Shown: positions 38,113 through 44,482 of the stretch, piece by piece
Numbering within the stretch: position 1 is the first letter of the stretch
Layout of the letters: each line of letters begins with the position of its first letter
Assembly (NCBI GenBank): GCA_964612675.1
Contig: CAZTDD010000002.1
Span: forward strand, 138,461 to 202,460
Reading direction: 5' to 3'
DNA from: an uncultured bacterium
GTDB lineage: Bacteria; Hinthialibacterota; Hinthialibacteria; Hinthialibacterales; JAKPRU01
DNA: 64,000 bases
Made by a program: the position numbers and the translations under genes
Notes under the pieces: generated by a model
Database searches by the model: none
The model's input: the letters and a program-made list of their open reading frames with translations, nothing else
Told to the model about the DNA's origin: nothing

Positions 38113-39276
38113 ATGTCGCAGAAGGACACCAACTCGATAAACTCCGGAAATCAGAGAGAACAAGCGCTTCTGGTAGGCCTTTACCCGCCGGATGTGGCTA
38201 CTGAGACCGCCGATCATCAGATCTCCGAATTGCTCAGTCTTGCCGACACGGCGGGAGCGGATGTAGAAGCGTTTGCTCGACAGCACATTCGACAGATTCA
38301 TCCCGCAACGTACATCGGACGCGGCAAAGTCGCAGAATTGCGCGACCTTGCGCGCGAAACGAGTGTCGAACTGGCGATATTCAGCCGAGATCTTACCCCC
38401 GTTCAACAGCGCAACCTCGAGCGGCAACTCGGTATTCAGGTTGTCGACCGTACGGAGCTGATCCTGGATATTTTCGCTCAGCACGCGGTGACGCGGGACG
38501 GCAAGATTCAGGTGGAACTGGCTCAGCTGCGGTATCTGCGTCCCCGCCTGGCCGGCGGAAGGCGGGATCTCTCTCGCTTGGGCGGTGGAATCGGTACTCG
38601 CGGTCCCGGAGAGACACAGCTCGAAATCGACCGTCGTCGTATCGACAGGCGAATCAGGAAACTGACGAAGGATCTTGAAGGGATTGTCCGGACGCGCCGA
38701 ACCCAGCGGCAGGCCAGGAGGCGTCGCAAAGTCCCAACTGCCGTTCTCGTCGGATATACCAATGCCGGCAAATCAACCATCCTGAACCGGCTGACTTCAG
38801 CCGGAGTCTTTGTCCGGAACCAACTTTTCTCAACTCTGGACACGACGACGAGACGGATTTATCTCGGCGATAATCGCATGGTCCTTGTTTCCGATACTGT
38901 GGGGTTCATTACGGGTCTGCCGGAACCATTGGTGGCTGCGTTCCGTGCGACTTTGGAAGTCGTAGAAGAAGCAGACATTATTCTGCATGTAGTCGACTCC
39001 AGTTCCTCCCATATCGAACAGGAAATCGAGGCTGTCACGTCACTTCTTCAAGATTTACAGGCCGGCGATAAACCAACGATTACGATTTTCAACAAATGGG
39101 ACCGCGTACGGTCTCCGGAGATTGTCCGCGAACTTCAGGAGTCTATGGAGCCGAATGTGGTCGTATCCGCGACAAAAGACGACACTCTTTCACCTCTCTT
39201 GGATTTGCTCACCTCCCTCGTGGATCGGTATGCACCCGAGGGACGGTGGGAGCTCGCCACGCAATGGGCCGGCTGA
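38113..39276 (+). CDS. hflX: GTPase HflX
   Basis: HflX N-domain plus G-domain motifs (GYTNAGKST, DTVGF, NKWD); miaA-hfq-hflX order conserved. Confidence 0.85.
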   Translation: MSQKDTNSINSGNQREQALLVGLYPPDVATETADHQISELLSLADTAGADVEAFARQHIRQIHPATYIGRGKVAELRDLARETSVELAIFSRDLTPVQQRNLERQLGIQVVDRTELILDIFAQHAVTRDGKIQVELAQLRYLRPRLAGGRRDLSRLGGGIGTRGPGETQLEIDRRRIDRRIRKLTKDLEGIVRTRRTQRQARRRRKVPTAVLVGYTNAGKSTILNRLTSAGVFVRNQLFSTLDTTTRRIYLGDNRMVLVSDTVGFITGLPEPLVAAFRATLEVVEEADIILHVVDSSSSHIEQEIEAVTSLLQDLQAGDKPTITIFNKWDRVRSPEIVRELQESMEPNVVVSATKDDTLSPLLDLLTSLVDRYAPEGRWELATQWAG

Positions 39277-39453
39277 CGCCGGTTCTACGCATCTTCTCTA
39301 CTGGTATATTTTCTTCATTTTCTTGAACTTATAGCACTAAGAGAGTGCTGTTTCGGTCATTGACATGCGGCCCCACCTCTGCTACAAAAAGCCAAACTCC
39401 ACAATGGTATTTGGAGTTATTCCAACCCAACACAGGAAAGGGAGGCAGGGCAA

Positions 39454-40896
39454 ATGAAGAGAGTCAGGATTTTTGCGGTCCTGGTCTGTGGGATGTTCGT
39501 GTTCAGCAGTATGGCGTCCGCAGATCTCGTGGGGTACTTCAAGTTCGACGAGTTCGATCGAACGGTATTTGAAGACGACAGTGGACAAGGCATGACGGGC
39601 TTCCTTGGAATGCCGTATAGCGATCCGGAGGTGATTCAAGGTCCGTCCGGCAATGCCGATGATTTCGCGGTCTCTTTCGATGGCGAGGGCGGATTGATTG
39701 TTGACGATTCTGCAGCAGAGGTGCTGAACATTCTTGAGCCGCCAATCACACTGGAATGCTGGGCGCGGTCGTCAACCGATCCAGGCGGTCACATAGGACT
39801 CATCAGCTATGGAATTCCCGGTGGACGAGCAGGTGGTGGCGGTTACAAGCTGGGGATTTCGGATGGCAACATCCTCTTTACGCTTTTTGCGGTAGTGGAC
39901 GTCTGGACGGAAGTACCGTTCCCATTCGATGGGGAATGGCATCACGTCGCCGGCGTCTATAACTGGGATGAAGGTGGAGTGATCATTTATGTGGACGGTG
40001 TCGAAGAACAATTCCTCCCGGGCGATTGGGGATTCACCGAACCCGGCGCAAAAGAGCTGGACATCGGGACCCAGTACACCGCGATCGGTCGATTCATCGG
40101 CGATATCGATCGTGTTCGTATCTCGACTGCGGCGTTGGGACCGGACGAATTGGACACCGACCCGGCATCAATGAAACCGGTACAGGACCACACCGCCGCC
40201 TTCTTCGGTTTTGATGAAGGCGAAATGCCGTTCACAAGCGAAGGCGCCGAGCCGCCATTGGAAACCATCTCACTGCCGCAGTGGGTGATCGAGAATCCGC
40301 CCGCTGAGTCCACGGGAGCGCCTGCTGTGGTCGACGACTCTCCCTCAGGTGAAGCGGGTGATACCTCACTCGAATTCAGCGGCACTCAGATCGCGGTCGT
40401 GGACGATTCCAACGGCGTCCTGAATTTCAGCGATGGCGACTGGACGCTGGAAGCGTGGGCGAAAACCGATTTCAACACGGACGTTATCCGCATGGTTATG
40501 TTCTATTACGGGCATCCGGGACATGGATATTCGTTCTCCATCAATTTGGAGACGGAGACTCTCCAGGTCACGACACTAGGGATTGCCGATATGCCCTCGG
40601 ATTCCGCGTATGTGATCCCCGACTATGAGTGGCATCATCTTGCGGTAGTCCACAAAGCCGGAGATTCAATTACGTATTTCATCGACGGCCAAGAAATCGA
40701 ATCGAACTCGTACACGAATCTCACCATCCCGGCCGACCCCGGAATGACAAAACTGTACATCGGTGCCGAGCCGGACATGGGACTCCCGTACACCGGGTTG
40801 CTCGACCGGATTCGGATCAGCAACAGTGCTTTGACCCCGGATCAGATGGATACCGACGCGGCCCCGGCGGCGGTGTCCGGTTGGATGCTGCGCTAA
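39454..40896 (+). CDS. Secreted protein with two LamG-like (concanavalin-A-like lectin/glucanase) domains
   Basis: Signal peptide; two copies of the WHHVAGVY...IYVDG / WHHLAVVH...YFIDG jelly-roll motif. Confidence 0.55.
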   Translation: MKRVRIFAVLVCGMFVFSSMASADLVGYFKFDEFDRTVFEDDSGQGMTGFLGMPYSDPEVIQGPSGNADDFAVSFDGEGGLIVDDSAAEVLNILEPPITLECWARSSTDPGGHIGLISYGIPGGRAGGGGYKLGISDGNILFTLFAVVDVWTEVPFPFDGEWHHVAGVYNWDEGGVIIYVDGVEEQFLPGDWGFTEPGAKELDIGTQYTAIGRFIGDIDRVRISTAALGPDELDTDPASMKPVQDHTAAFFGFDEGEMPFTSEGAEPPLETISLPQWVIENPPAESTGAPAVVDDSPSGEAGDTSLEFSGTQIAVVDDSNGVLNFSDGDWTLEAWAKTDFNTDVIRMVMFYYGHPGHGYSFSINLETETLQVTTLGIADMPSDSAYVIPDYEWHHLAVVHKAGDSITYFIDGQEIESNSYTNLTIPADPGMTKLYIGAEPDMGLPYTGLLDRIRISNSALTPDQMDTDAAPAAVSGWMLR

Positions 40897-40936
40897 TTCC
40901 CATTGCGCACACCCTTCGACAGATTGACTGAAGACA

Positions 40937-40968
40937 GAAGCGGCTGGTCGCTATCGACCAGCCGCTTC
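40937..40968. terminator. Perfect 14-bp-stem hairpin between the convergent LamG and TIR genes
   Basis: GAAGCGGCTGGTCG-ctat-CGACCAGCCGCTTC. Confidence 0.5.
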
Positions 40969-41020
40969 GATGGTTGTGCATACAATTGTGGTCAGAAGAA
41001 ACTTCTTAGAGGATGGAGAC

Positions 41021-41449
41021 TCATGTCGCGCTAGCCATTTTCTCTTTCGTCGGCAATAGCCGAGTAAGAGCCTCCGGATCTTGGAGATCTTCAAACTTTA
41101 CTACTTGTAGATCTTTGACTTCCACGGGCATGTTGAGAGGCAACGTATCCTCAGTAACAACAGCAATCATCTCTTTGTCCATCGCCCACGCGGCTCCGAG
41201 CTCGTGGAGCACCCATTTTGAGTCAAATGAATCCTCTGACACCAGAAGGATAAAAGTGTCGCAGTTTGAAATCTCTTCTTTGAGTCTTGTTTGCCAGTCC
41301 TCTCCCGCACTAAGCATATTTGTTGTGAAGACAGACGTGTTACGGCGGCGTGACAACAGATGGCGCAATAAGTTTGCACGTTTCGAGTCTGTGTAGGCGT
41401 AACTGAGAAAGACTCGATGCGTTGCTTCTGACTTCTTTGTTCCCGTCAT
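41021..41449 (-). CDS. TIR-domain-only protein (142 aa)
   Basis: VFLSYAYTDS...FILLVSEDSFDSKWVLHELGAAW matches the bacterial TIR_2 signature, including the conserved Glu; GC about 47% versus about 57% genome. Confidence 0.65.
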   Translation of the reverse strand: MTGTKKSEATHRVFLSYAYTDSKRANLLRHLLSRRRNTSVFTTNMLSAGEDWQTRLKEEISNCDTFILLVSEDSFDSKWVLHELGAAWAMDKEMIAVVTEDTLPLNMPVEVKDLQVVKFEDLQDPEALTRLLPTKEKMASAT

Positions 41450-41883
41450 TTTCCACCTTTTGCCTTCTTCGCCCTGGCAGTGAGTTGTTTCATATATTCG
41501 TCAAACTCGTTAAGGTCGATTGCCTTATAAGGAATTATAACATCCGGCATCTCGTCGGGCGAAATCTTGTCAATGATTGCTGTGATTCGTTTGCCGAGTA
41601 TCCAGGCTGCCCCGATTTCCGTCAAAACCCAAGGTCGCTGGATGGAGCAAGGGGTCAATAATACAAGAAACTCATCGCAGCCGCGGATACTTTTCCGTAT
41701 CGATTCTGGTATCGAGTCTCCTCCTTCTATGTCTTTCTCATCGAGGAAAGTCTTCGCCCCGTATCTTCGGATTTTTCTTTCTATCTCACCGGCAATTTGT
41801 TTAGCGATCCAGCGGTCGGCTGTGGAGTGGCTGATGAAAACCGTGTATCTGCGTGCGGTTGCTTTATTGGTAGTCCTTGCCAT
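41446..41883 (-). CDS. TIR-domain-only protein (145 aa)
   Basis: VFISHSTADRWIAKQI...FLVLLTPCSIQRPWVLTEIGAAW TIR_2 signature; ATGA overlap with the downstream TIR gene; low GC. Confidence 0.7.
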   Translation of the reverse strand: MARTTNKATARRYTVFISHSTADRWIAKQIAGEIERKIRRYGAKTFLDEKDIEGGDSIPESIRKSIRGCDEFLVLLTPCSIQRPWVLTEIGAAWILGKRITAIIDKISPDEMPDVIIPYKAIDLNEFDEYMKQLTARAKKAKGGK

Positions 41884-42100
41884 CGCTGTCAGATCTCCGA
41901 GGATCTACTGTGCAAACGACTAGTATTTCATTTTAGAACAGATCACAAGGTCGTCAAGTTGAAGGACTATTTCAGAGAGGCAATTCCACCCACTCGTCAT
42001 CGCAACAGGTCTCGACTGGTTGACATGCCTTCTCCAGCGCATGCAGATCTCCTATCCTCTTTTCATCGTGTAAAATAGTCGGACATAAGGGAGTTTTTCC

Positions 42101-43105
42101 ATGATTGAGACATATGCATACGCTCGCGCAGGCCTTATCGGGAATCCATCGGACGGTTACTACGGAAAGACGATCTCCATTATCGTTGGCAATTTTCGGG
42201 CACGTGTGTTGTGCTATCCGTCCGCAAACCTCGAAATCAAGCCCAGTGCGATTGATATCCCCGTATTTCGTTCGTTGGATTCGCTGCGTAGACGTGTGAC
42301 TCAATACGGCTATTACGGCGGTGTCCGTTTGTTAATGGCCACGATCAAGAAATTCACGGATTACTGCGAAAACGAAGGCATCGAACTGCCGAATCGGAAC
42401 TTCACTCTGGAGTATGAATCGAACATCCCAGCCCGGGTCGGCCTCGCCGGTTCCAGTGCGATTATCACCGCGACCATGCGTGCCCTGCGTGCCTTCTACA
42501 ACGTCGATATCCCGAAACATATCCAACCGAACTATGTGCTGAGTGCTGAAATCGATGAATTGGGGATTGCGGCGGGGTTGCAAGACCGCGTCATCCAGAC
42601 CTACGAAGGCATGGTCTTCATGAATTTCGCGCGAGAGATCATGGAAAAGCAGGGCCACGGCGACTACGAGGAGCTGGATCCGACAAATCTTCCGCCGTTG
42701 TTTGTAGCCTATCAAGCCGATTTATCAGAAGGATCCGAGATAGTCCACAGCAACCTGCGTGAGCGATTCCAGCGCGGCGACAAGGATGTCGTGGACGCGA
42801 TGAAACGGTTTGGTGAGATCACCGAAGAAGCGAAAATCGCGATCACGGAGGCCGATCACAAACGTCTCAGTGGGTTGATCAACGAGAACTTCGATCTACG
42901 TGCGTCGATTGTCAAATTGAAGCAAGAGGACAAAGAACTCGTGGAGCGGGCTCGGCGAATCGGCGCCAGCTCGAAATTCGCCGGTTCCGGCGGAGCGGTG
43001 ATCGGGACCTTCGATGGAACCGATGAGATGCTGCAGAAACTTGTCGACACGTACAAGGAAATCGGCGCCGAGGTGGTTGTCCCAAAAGTACTGAAGACAA
43101 ATTGA
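42101..43105 (+). CDS. GHMP-family sugar kinase (glucuronokinase-like)
   Basis: N-terminal AYARAGLIGNPSDGYYGKTIS and GHMP motif PARVGLAGSSAIITA. Confidence 0.6.
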   Translation: MIETYAYARAGLIGNPSDGYYGKTISIIVGNFRARVLCYPSANLEIKPSAIDIPVFRSLDSLRRRVTQYGYYGGVRLLMATIKKFTDYCENEGIELPNRNFTLEYESNIPARVGLAGSSAIITATMRALRAFYNVDIPKHIQPNYVLSAEIDELGIAAGLQDRVIQTYEGMVFMNFAREIMEKQGHGDYEELDPTNLPPLFVAYQADLSEGSEIVHSNLRERFQRGDKDVVDAMKRFGEITEEAKIAITEADHKRLSGLINENFDLRASIVKLKQEDKELVERARRIGASSKFAGSGGAVIGTFDGTDEMLQKLVDTYKEIGAEVVVPKVLKTN

Positions 43106-43210
43106 AAAGGACTGAAGACAAATTAGAAGGTTCTGAAGACGAACTGCAAAGTGCTGAAGATGAACTGAGAGGTTCTGAAGACGAACTGAAAAGTGCTGAA
43201 GACAAACTGA
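43085..43210. repeat. Six tandem 21-bp units (ARGTNCTGAAGACRAANTGNA) starting in the last codons of the GHMP kinase gene
   Basis: Direct reading; units 2-6 lie beyond the stop and four carry an in-frame TGA/TAG. Confidence 0.7.
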
Positions 43211-43303
43211 GTTGTGTTTATTCTTTTCCTCCCCCGAGATCGGGGGAGGTGTAGGAGGGGGTTGTTCAAACGGTCAGAGACGTTGAATGTCACTTCTGCG
43301 AAG

Positions 43304-44482
43304 CTAGTTGCTGCTGTTCGCCTTCTCTCGCGCAGTCTGCAGATTCCTCAAAAACTGTTCGTTCCCCGGATCCAACTGAAGCGCTTTCGAGAAAGCTCCG
43401 TGCGCCTCTTCGTACTTATCTGTGAACATGTAGCAAACCCCCAAGTTGTTCCAATCTCGCGGTGAGTCGGAATCCGCCTCCAACGCCGCACGAACGTGTC
43501 CAAGCGCCGCCCTTGGTTTTTTCGCCCTTAGCAGCAATCCCGCGAGAACGCTGTGCGCAGGACCGAACGTCGGATCGACGGATACGCACTCGGTAAACTG
43601 ACGTATCGCCGACTTCTCGTCTTTCTGTTTCAGGTACGCGATCCCCAATCGATACCAGGCCGCCGGGTTGTCCGGATCCCTGTGTGTCAGAGTCTTAAGG
43701 TCTTTGATGTCGGTGGATTGCTCCTCGATCTCCTTGAATCGCGTGATATGTTCACGGCCTTTATCGCGTTCCCCAAGACGGATTAAAACTTGTCCGAGTG
43801 AGTAATGTGTGGAGGCGTTATCCGAATCGACTTTTAACGCTTTCTGGAGCACATCTCTCGCGTCTTCAAGCTCGTTCATTCTCATCAACGTGCGTCCCAA
43901 GCCTTGATACGCCGGAACTCGGCCCGGTGAACACTCGATCGCTTTCTCGTACGCGTCCCGGGACGCCTCCAGCTCGCCTCGTTCATATTCGACTGTTCCC
44001 AGAAGGTCGAGGGCGGGAGCATGGCGCGGTTCGTATTCGAGCGCCTTGAGCAATATCGTGCGGCATTTGTCTAGATCTTTTGTCTCGTGACGGTGGTACT
44101 TCGCCAGGTATACCGCCGCTTTCACATTCGACGGCTGCAGATCGAGAACGCGTTGAAAACACTTCCCGATGTCGACCCATGTATTTGTCCAGATTGCACA
44201 CTCGCCAAGTCGGAAATGGAGTTCCGGGTTGTCCGGAGCGAGCTGTATTCCCTCTTTGTAAAGCTCCGCCGCTTCGTCGAATCGGTTGCGCGATTCCAGG
44301 CGCTTCCCTTTACTCAGAATGGTATGTACCCGTTCGTACCGTTTTGCTTGTGCGTGATGAAGGTACCCGGCCGCCCCGATTAGGCCGACTACCAGGAGCG
44401 CGACTCCATAATAAAGAAATGTGCGTCGAGATGTTTGCCTGATTGCTTTTGCGGCCTCGCGGATGATGAAGCGTTCGAACAT
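43304..44482 (-). CDS. TPR-repeat protein with N-terminal membrane anchor
   Basis: One TM segment followed by about 8 TPR units. Confidence 0.6.
   Translation of the reverse strand: MFERFIIREAAKAIRQTSRRTFLYYGVALLVVGLIGAAGYLHHAQAKRYERVHTILSKGKRLESRNRFDEAAELYKEGIQLAPDNPELHFRLGECAIWTNTWVDIGKCFQRVLDLQPSNVKAAVYLAKYHRHETKDLDKCRTILLKALEYEPRHAPALDLLGTVEYERGELEASRDAYEKAIECSPGRVPAYQGLGRTLMRMNELEDARDVLQKALKVDSDNASTHYSLGQVLIRLGERDKGREHITRFKEIEEQSTDIKDLKTLTHRDPDNPAAWYRLGIAYLKQKDEKSAIRQFTECVSVDPTFGPAHSVLAGLLLRAKKPRAALGHVRAALEADSDSPRDWNNLGVCYMFTDKYEEAHGAFSKALQLDPGNEQFLRNLQTAREKANSSN

Follow-up and report, generated by a model that had tools for sequence, protein, structure and literature searches.

Can two small proteins, each composed of little more than a TIR domain, form a working system without a dedicated sensor or effector? 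This question is raised by two adjacent genes, here termed TIR-B and TIR-A, of an uncultured bacterium of the Hinthialibacterota (contig CAZTDD010000002.1, positions 138,461 to 202,460 of the forward strand). The whole stretch of 64,000 nucleotides (64 kb) is called the window, and coordinates refer to it unless a locus handle precedes them. Innate immunity in bacteria, plants, and animals has an enzymatic core in common, the TIR domain. In every well-described bacterial system, this domain is attached to, or encoded beside, a sensor or an effector. The pair in the window is read here, with a probability of roughly one-half, as a self-contained, two-subunit heteromeric TIR enzyme that cleaves nicotinamide adenine dinucleotide (NAD) and serves as its own effector, with a probable role in defense of the abortive-infection type, the defensive role being suggested by domain and motifs.

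Architecture of the TIR pair

The open reading frames (ORFs) and the start/stop overlap by which an earlier note on this DNA had described two coupled genes were confirmed (Table 1). The overlap indicates translational coupling of TIR-B and TIR-A, and a GGTGG motif resembling a Shine–Dalgarno sequence lies inside TIR-B just 5′ of the TIR-A ATG. The Pfam profile TIR_2 (PF13676; gathering cutoff of 28 bits) matches TIR-A with 69.6 bits (E = 4e-19, profile positions 1–122 of 122) and TIR-B with 63.3 bits (E = 4e-17, positions 1–121 of 122). Both proteins also pass the cutoff of the Pfam TIR profile and that of ThsB_TIR (41.5 bits for TIR-A and 27.2 bits for TIR-B versus 21.2 bits). TIR is the only domain detected by the Pfam scan of the two proteins, in which no helix-turn-helix, ribbon-helix-helix, or other domain was found. 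TIR-A and TIR-B are only 25% identical to each other; hence, they are old paralogs with a long-maintained partnership rather than products of a recent duplication.

AlphaFold2 models built from the family alignments have a predicted local distance difference test score of 83.7 for TIR-B and 80.4 for TIR-A. Both show a flavodoxin-like TIR fold with five strands alternating with helices. A Foldseek comparison with solved TIR domains yields a probability of 1.00 to many of them and a template-modeling score of ~0.6–0.7 for both models. The best matches of TIR-B are SPARTA TIR-APAZ, AbTir, BtTir, PdTIR, and BtpA, and those of TIR-A are SARM1/TIR-1 and SPARTA TIRs. For both predicted models, the best solved-structure matches are NAD-consuming TIR domains. 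Profile search and predicted fold agree herein with the earlier description of each product as essentially a bare TIR domain.

The residues of catalytic type, namely the W-x-x-x-E motif of helix alpha-C and a phenylalanine of strand A, are F14, W79, and E83 in TIR-A and F16, W85, and E89 in TIR-B. The glutamate is embedded in the block WVLHELGAAW in TIR-A and WVLTEIGAAW in TIR-B. Aligned with solved chains, E83 corresponds to the W-x-x-E-L glutamate of RPP1 and E89 to that of BtTir (7uxr), BtpA/TcpB, and PdTIR. Work on AbTir and BtTir assigned the catalytic glutamate to this position of the W-x-x-x-E motif and found its aromatic tryptophan in all cyclase TIRs. In the structures of AbTir and SARM1, the active site is composite: two TIR domains contribute to it across the BE interface, and the BB loop is intact. 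The placement of the catalytic glutamate opposite the strand-A phenylalanine was described for Sau-Thoeris (PMC12578639). Published work links the phenylalanine, tryptophan, and glutamate at these positions to TIR catalysis and to ADP-ribose cyclization.

Among 30 paired homologs per family, phenylalanine and glutamate are kept in at least 95%, so that the conserved glutamate recognized earlier stands, and the tryptophan is kept in at least 95% of TIR-B and at least 90% of TIR-A proteins. The TIR-B family is characterized by invariant F16, W85, and E89, the BB-loop motif FLDEKDIEGGxSI, and a conserved C-terminal helix. In the TIR-A family, F14, E83, and the BB-loop motif LSAGEDW are invariant, and the C-terminal half is variable. 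Judged by these residues, TIR-A and TIR-B carry complete catalytic motifs, and NAD+ cleavage itself is predicted.

Distribution and co-evolution

TIR-B belongs to a tight family of TIR-only proteins of ~141 amino acids with 308 homologs, which retain 60–70% identity across phyla. Relatives at this level occur in KSB1, Thermodesulfovibrionia, Acidobacteriota, Poribacteria, and others. A scan with the TIR-B alignment, restricted to one genome per species, gave 79 loci. B is directly followed by a second TIR gene on the same strand at 45 of them, including nearly all loci that are at least 50% identical. In an independent scan of metagenomes, which was seeded with the TIR-A alignment, B lies directly upstream of A at about 30 of the 41 informative loci. 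The B-then-A pair is found at about 75 loci of at least eight phyla, with hosts in Verrucomicrobiota, Planctomycetota (including Brocadiia), Acidobacteriota (many), Chloroflexota, Actinomycetota, Bacteroidota, Alphaproteobacteria, and KSB1.

The two genes are nearly always translationally coupled. Of the 45 paired loci, 22 have an assigned overlap of 4 nt, and at all but 6 the gap or overlap, as assigned, measures at most 14 nt. The pairwise-identity matrices of A and B correlate with r = 0.80 (30 paired homologs), with a mean identity of 52% for B and 37% for A. Compared with L087, a relative that carries the pair at the same site, the ratio of nonsynonymous to synonymous divergence (dN/dS) is 0.15 for TIR-B and 0.25 for TIR-A, versus 0.02–0.08 for the flanking genes; both TIR genes are under purifying selection. 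On the evidence of gene order, overlap, and correlated divergence, A and B form a transcript-like, translationally coupled unit whose members are inherited together, transferred together, and co-evolving. The pair is real and widespread, belongs to the TIR_2 superfamily, and extends a crowded field, with a biological role that is putative.

The comparison of the window with L087 also shows a dS of about 0.5 for the TIR genes (window positions 41021–41883) and of 1.2–2.6 for the flanks (window stretch 38113–44482). Amino acid divergence is higher in the TIR genes than in the flanks despite this lower dS. The low value reflects either a later exchange of the cassette between lineages or an artifact of codon composition or saturation in the simple Nei–Gojobori method.

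Close B homologs without A are almost never found (L021 only), and A genes without B occur about 8–12 times. A frameshifted or fragmentary B beside an intact A is seen at about 5–9 loci, and the reverse case at one locus. Since the counts stem from metagenome-assembled genomes (MAGs) and from two differently seeded scans, this asymmetry is weak evidence. Examples in which TIR-B is split across frames or fragmentary directly 5′ of an intact TIR-A are L037, L061, L073, L077, and L091 (and L135). Such remnants could be real pseudogenes or assembly errors, as these are MAG loci.

Between the L15 and SecY genes of the ribosomal spc operon lies an intact solo TIR-A homolog (L088 4001–4447; also L089, L090, and L101). 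It is 49% identical and keeps WVLHELG; next come a DUF5678 gene and a gene of unknown kind for 134 amino acids, an arrangement seen on 21 contigs. The spc operon is an odd, presumably highly expressed place for a potential NADase.

The TIR-B family has two sister architectures (loci L041, L043, L044, L048, L049, L063, and L074; and L053–L069). In the one, mostly from Planctomycetota, B is coupled to a second TIR of ~200 amino acids that is extended at its C terminus. The other is mostly from Bacteroidota; here, a single protein of ~210 amino acids combines a TIR with a C-terminal extension of ~80 amino acids and has no partner. In addition, distant solo B-like TIRs exist. An alternative conserved partner of the unpaired relatives was looked for and not found; some apparent solos proved to be pairs with a divergent 200-aa TIR, and others are 210-aa TIR-plus-extension proteins.

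Giant proteins encoded outside the window (P0168–P0218) comprise 700–2300 amino acids with three to seven tandem TIR_2 domains of three alternating types. Most of them end in a WD40 propeller, and one has a different, unidentified C-terminal region. They ranked near the top of an exhaustive profile search and were considered as Rosetta-stone fusion evidence but rejected, their scores being sums of ordinary units of ~35 bits. These giants are not close kin of TIR-B and show that heterotypic TIR arrays are common.

Genomic neighborhood and the search for a partner

In the window, the pair lies between the convergent gene of a secreted-type LamG protein and the divergent gene of a GHMP kinase, as had been described. 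A scan of the 54 further window proteins revealed no partner of the SIR2, SLOG, Macro, or transmembrane (TM) type and none of the type found in cyclic-oligonucleotide–based antiphage signaling systems (CBASS), which agrees with the earlier note.

When all ORFs up to 5 kb away from the 45 paired loci were clustered, no common family emerged beyond lineage-specific synteny, which concerns eight loci (six labeled Pyrinomonadaceae) and four Bryobacterales loci. The flanks of 37 paired loci, with 117 proteins, were scanned with Pfam and PADLOC. They mostly encode housekeeping proteins, such as Trp synthase, SRP54, Hsp70, aconitase, serine hydroxymethyltransferase, NadA, and TonB-type barrels. Defense or mobility families are represented by one flanking protein each and PIN domains by two; SspH-, MkoA-, and transposase-like proteins are single occurrences. 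No SIR2, SLOG, Macro, or TM effector recurs among these 117 proteins.

In a 2-oxoacid dehydrogenase operon (L003–L008), one pair separates the E1-alpha gene from the E1-beta gene; another lies directly after nadA-nadE. The former belongs to a Verrucomicrobiota MAG and adjoins a radical-SAM gene. A TIR-A homolog at L092 (4001–4438) overlaps the stop codon of an E1-beta gene; the same operon holds a ParE-type toxin-antitoxin pair, and B was not seen there. The two independent occurrences in E1 operons may mark an insertion hotspot for small modules or be a coincidence.

Close relatives were not found in IMG/VR or in the plasmid and phage collections, where the TIRs of plasmids and phages are only distant (<40% identity). 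Carriage by viruses, plasmids, or phages was therefore rejected for close relatives. The features of defense-island residence or mobile-element cargo are absent, the flanks being mostly of housekeeping type and phage or plasmid carriage of close relatives lacking.

Two proposals of the earlier note are affected by these results in opposite directions. The notion of an unusual, minimal two-TIR system is strengthened by a coupled, co-evolving pair that is conserved in many phyla and has no common third gene. The antiphage role had been made dependent on the contexts of homologs, and these turned out to be mostly housekeeping. Because of such nondefense contexts, guilt by association lends it no support, and it is suggested by the TIR fold and the motifs.

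Among the other window proteins, single PADLOC matches were obtained to mad2 (E = 5e-24), LeoA and LeoBC (E = 1e-9), PDC-M71B, and type II methyltransferase models. The LeoA and LeoBC matches could plausibly derive from a GTPase such as HflX, and the methyltransferase matches from a housekeeping methyltransferase.

Proposed mechanism

In the proposed mechanism, A and B would assemble into a mixed oligomer that cleaves the nicotinamide–ribose bond of NAD+. A mixed oligomer is proposed because TIR active sites are composite and built from two TIR domains. TIR-B, with its high conservation, BB loop, and C-terminal helix, would be the core catalytic subunit. Regulation or sensing would fall to TIR-A, which evolves faster and varies in its C-terminal half; this subunit would restrain B in the absence of a trigger, and the most likely trigger is a phage protein. 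The consumption of NAD+ would itself be the output and lead to growth arrest or abortive infection. Hence, no ThsA-like effector would be needed.

A more specific version of this mechanism, which is put forward tentatively and as an unlikely one among possible forms, is a TIR-on-TIR switch, that is, a minimal immune or addiction module in which regulator and effector are both paralogs of one enzymatic TIR fold. Herein, TIR-A would occupy the BE-interface position on TIR-B and hold the composite NADase site in an unproductive state; displacement or remodeling of TIR-A by a phage protein or by stress would end this state. Such a switch would need no sensor domain, second messenger, or separate effector.

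Several observations weigh against the heteromeric defense enzyme. Its homologs reside mainly among housekeeping genes, outside defense islands, and close relatives were not found on phage, viral, or plasmid records. A long stay at one site, as in the six species with Pyrinomonadaceae-type flanks, is less typical of fast-turnover defense genes. Both subunits keep the glutamate, so that sequence gives no evident sign of the proposed split between an enzyme and a regulator, and the existence of intact TIR-A homologs without B means that A is not strictly dependent on B. Both also keep the cyclase-associated tryptophan, which fits a signaling role equally well. Enzyme activity, contact between A and B, and phage defense of the pair are predictions.

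Alternative explanations

Signaling is the first role to be weighed against that of a self-contained NADase. A and B could be Thoeris-like generators, comparable to ThsB1 and ThsB2, of a cyclic ADP-ribose–type or other NAD-derived signal for a receptor-effector encoded elsewhere. The ThsB_TIR cutoff is passed, the best PADLOC matches are mostly ThsB models, the tryptophan of all cyclase TIRs is kept in both proteins, and the co-operation of two TIRs as sensor and cyclase is established in Sau-Thoeris (PMC12578639). What renders this role unlikely is the effector, which Thoeris I, II, IV, and Shaseng carry in the same operon and which is linked to the pair neither in the window nor at the 37 loci, spanning at least eight phyla and many independent insertions. 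A two-gene module that moves horizontally would arrive without it. In addition, the NCBIfam Thoeris models remain far below their cutoff (44 versus 220 bits).

Improbable to a similar degree is a toxin-antitoxin–like addiction or stress module, in which TIR-B would be a constitutively competent NADase toxin and TIR-A a paralog that neutralizes it in a nonproductive heteromer. Loss or degradation of A would free B, and any antiphage effect would be secondary. In plants, the TIR of RRS1 restrains the TIR of RPS4 as a heterodimer. The two genes are small and coupled, are scattered singly among housekeeping genes and in operons, and have a GC content that is low relative to their hosts; at L092, a TIR-A homolog even shares an operon with the ParE-type pair. 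The excess of solo A genes and B remnants, weak and MAG-based as it is, would be expected if B were harmful without A. TIR-A, however, keeps phenylalanine, tryptophan, and glutamate in at least 90–95% of its homologs, which a pure inhibitor would not need. Further, neither a DNA-binding antitoxin domain nor an obvious autoregulatory operator is present, and the presumed toxin is the upstream gene.

A housekeeping role outside biological conflict would be that of an enzyme of NAD turnover or a nucleotide N-glycosidase, active in nucleotide or NAD homeostasis and related, as a heteromer, to a branch of the same fold that comprises nucleoside 2-deoxyribosyltransferase (NDT), DNPH1, and CMP hydrolase. 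It would suit the mostly housekeeping contexts, the stable vertical inheritance within families, the locus after nadA-nadE, and the lack of phage or plasmid carriage in close relatives. Weak Pfam matches to Nuc_deoxyrib_tr point in the same direction, as do DNPH1, BcmB, and NDT structures among the fold matches. The motif E-[LI]-G-A-A-x(4)-K of the pair is, moreover, assumed here to resemble the NDT-type motif. This role is, nevertheless, quite unlikely, with TIR_2 scoring 69.6 bits and NDT 19.5 bits (the latter below the NDT cutoff), with NAD-consuming TIRs as the best fold matches, and with a relaxed selection seen in dN/dS values 3–10 times those of the flanks. Patchy presence and absence, pseudogenes, 60–70% identity across phyla, and low GC content mark the pair as an accessory, horizontally moving module and not as core metabolism.

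Finally, the idea of two independent, single-gene TIR-only defense proteins in tandem, each with its own trigger and without physical co-operation, draws on single short TIR-only proteins that can defend alone (PMC11350192), on intact solo TIR-A and distant solo B-like TIRs, and on the completeness of both catalytic motifs, but is very improbable in view of the order, strand, and start/stop coupling kept over about 75 loci in at least eight phyla, the correlation of r = 0.80, and a 25% A–B identity that reflects an old, maintained partnership.

Composition, hairpin, and expression signals

The cassette has a guanine-plus-cytosine (GC) content of 47.7% against a window mean of 54.7%. Ranked against stretches of equal size, it is in the lowest 0.6 percentile, and it contains the GC minimum of the whole window. 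At third codon positions, the GC content (GC3) is 0.51, compared with 0.59–0.65 in the neighboring genes (about 0.62). The earlier note was, thus, right in singling out a low-GC cassette, the lowest-GC stretch of the window, and its estimate of ~10 points is replaced by a deficit of ~7 points (about 12 in GC3). The GC content of the cassette is below that of the flanks at 40 of 42 loci, on average by 7.7 points, over host GC contents from 44% to 72%. Low GC is a family-wide trait, whatever the GC content of the host.

Given this family-wide deficit and the occurrence of the cassette at the same site in L087, low GC is a poor marker of recent arrival, and its use as proof of recent horizontal acquisition was rejected. 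From the earlier argument for horizontal acquisition, the mobility itself retains support in the gain or loss polymorphism documented by an empty site (L139).

The coordinates of the pair and of the signals around it are collected in Table 1.

Table 1 Coordinates of the TIR pair and of associated signals in the window
Feature	Position	Strand	Description
Hairpin	40937..40968		Perfect 14-bp stem, 4-nt loop; separates TIR-A from the convergent LamG gene
TIR-A	41021..41449	minus	Second gene of the pair; 142 aa, TIR-only; faster-evolving subunit
ATGA start/stop overlap	41446..41449	minus	4 nt; TIR-A ATG over TIR-B stop
TIR-B	41446..41883	minus	First gene of the pair; 145 aa, TIR-only; more conserved subunit
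Shine–Dalgarno GGAG for TIR-B	41895..41898	minus	11 nt 5′ of ATG; conserved in L087
Candidate sigma-70–like promoter	41930..41957	minus	TTGACG, 16 nt, TAAAAT; consensus match only

The hairpin 3′ of TIR-A has a fold z-score of −4.95, and none of 200 shuffled sequences folds as well. It lacks a T-run. In L087, 11 of 12 pairs of the stem are kept, and L139, which has no TIR genes, possesses a different strong hairpin directly after LamG at the equivalent position. Because the hairpin is conserved together with LamG in L087 and L139 has its own post-LamG hairpin, it is read as a probable T-tract–less terminator that serves both TIR-A and the convergent LamG gene. The strong hairpin reported earlier is, therefore, real, and its role is more likely that of a terminator shared with LamG than that of a cassette boundary.

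As a boundary or attC-like site, the hairpin was rejected in view of its retention with LamG, the analog in L139, and the lack of flanking repeats, which were looked for around the cassette and not found. RNA motifs around the cassette, such as a riboswitch, were likewise rejected, the sole hit being a chance, subthreshold mir-133 match on the hairpin.

The promoter candidate emerged from a consensus scan with 10 of 12 consensus matches and is located ~47 nt 5′ of the TIR-B ATG. L087 keeps TAAAAT in full and TTGACG at five of six positions, and the nearby spacer has diverged. The GGAG of TIR-B lies inside a short imperfect palindrome (41891–41906).

An imperfect 19-nt direct repeat occurs at 41880–41898 and 42034–42052, with CAGATCTCC common to both copies. 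The first copy covers the ribosome-binding site and start of TIR-B. The second, 154 nt upstream, falls into the spacer between TIR-B and the divergent GHMP kinase gene. Both copies are largely kept in L087, and the repeat could be an operator or a chance match. An ORF of 93 amino acids on the plus strand (41797–42078) overlaps the TIR-B start and the upstream spacer. Since its GC3 of 0.41 is far below the coding norm of the genome, it is most likely not a gene.

History of the locus

The closest comparison is offered by L087, with a TIR-B that is 85% and a GHMP kinase that is 95% identical. Here, the order GHMP kinase, pair, LamG, HflX, and Hfq is the same as in the window. L139, a somewhat more distant relative whose GHMP kinase is 80% identical, keeps the arrangement miaA-hfq-hflX...LamG-GHMP, and LamG passes directly to GHMP across a 330-nt spacer without TIR genes. 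This empty site defines the cassette as a gain or loss of roughly 1.1 kb at a syntenic site. The exact insertion boundaries were sought from it and given up, the intergenic DNA being too diverged to align. In the six species with Pyrinomonadaceae-type flanks, the pair occupies one syntenic site through family-level divergence.

L140 (8309–10515), from a more distant relative with a GHMP kinase 68% identical, encodes a 437-aa TIR protein that adjoins an LD_cluster2/3 protein, ~2 kb from the same kinase gene. The LD_cluster families presumably belong to the SLOG/LOG group, which would make L140 a conventional TIR-plus-effector arrangement, unlike the bare pair of the window.

Implications

If the proposed reading holds, two bare TIR paralogs constitute the simplest multisubunit TIR system known. 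With about 290 residues, they would offer a tractable model of how TIR–TIR contacts switch NAD+ cleavage on and off, a question central to SARM1, the TIR-type plant immune receptors (TNLs), and Thoeris. The pair would also be a defense or addiction candidate that annotation has missed, as PADLOC v2 and NCBIfam give only generic, subthreshold TIR matches. It is common in poorly studied phyla of soil and sediment, such as Acidobacteriota, Planctomycetota, Verrucomicrobiota, and Chloroflexota.

Comparison with known systems

Full-text literature searches yielded no published stand-alone TIR–TIR system. The co-operation of two TIR proteins, of which one senses or recruits and the other catalyzes, is known from Sau-Thoeris, the staphylococcal type I Thoeris (ThsA-ThsB1-ThsB2; Roberts et al. 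2025, PMC12578639), and from Shaseng (SLATT + SasA + SasB). With these systems, the pair shares two divergent TIR proteins side by side, a glutamate opposite the strand-A phenylalanine, and NAD+ as substrate, the latter being predicted here. However, both systems possess a separate effector in the operon (ThsA with a STALD domain or the SLATT membrane protein) and need the glutamate in only one TIR. ThsB1 is a large multidomain protein of 41.8 kDa, whereas the window encodes bare TIRs of ~140 amino acids that both keep the glutamate and are accompanied by no effector gene. The PADLOC ThsB matches of TIR-A and TIR-B are weak and partial (E = 3e-9 or worse), and the 44 bits obtained against a cutoff of 220 bits belong to the NCBIfam model of Thoeris type III ThcB4. 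Because an adjacent effector was looked for in the window and at 37 loci and not found, the pair is not a Thoeris system.

The short TIR-only proteins TIR-V, -VI, and -IX of Escherichia coli defend without an effector (Wang et al. 2024, PMC11350192), and SpbK of Bacillus subtilis is reportedly a one-protein NADase of the abortive-infection type. As in the pair, a TIR is the sole recognizable domain of these proteins, and a separate effector is lacking. Their defense proceeds by cell death or growth arrest and needs the conserved active-site residues of the TIR NADase. They differ as one-gene systems of Proteobacteria or Firmicutes, with an extra N-terminal region in SpbK, whereas the window contains a conserved two-gene heteropair known from uncultured Acidobacteriota, Planctomycetota, Verrucomicrobiota, Chloroflexota, and others. 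With the PADLOC model of spbK, the match is weak and confined to the TIR core (E = 1e-7). As a conserved, coupled, and co-evolving unit of two genes, the pair is distinguished from a one-gene TIR-only system, though solo A homologs exist.

The plant nucleotide-binding leucine-rich repeat receptors (NLRs) RPS4 and RRS1 resemble the pair in being adjacent, divergent TIR paralogs with heterodimeric restraint, and the RPS4/RRS1 structure 4c6t is among the fold matches of TIR-B. This is an analogy of logic only and implies no specific homology. RPS4 and RRS1 are eukaryotic, large NLR receptors that carry the TIR as their N-terminal domain.

Type II toxin-antitoxin modules with NAD-targeting toxins include RES-Xre and MbcT-MbcA. 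They have in common with the pair a small, coupled two-gene cassette, patchy horizontal spread, a location among housekeeping genes, and NAD+ as target (predicted for the pair). Their antitoxins, in contrast, have unrelated folds and often bind DNA, whereas both partners are TIR paralogs with intact catalytic motifs in the pair.

SPARTA TIR-APAZ, SARM1, AbTir, and TIR-STING are the best structural matches of the two models, share the W-x-x-x-E motif with the pair, and have a composite active site of two TIRs. In them, the TIR is fused to or partnered with a dedicated sensor (Argonaute/APAZ, ARM-SAM, STING, or coiled coil), whereas each subunit of the pair would have only the other TIR. By analogy with these systems, the pair would work most like an effector-type TIR NADase that is activated by oligomerization.

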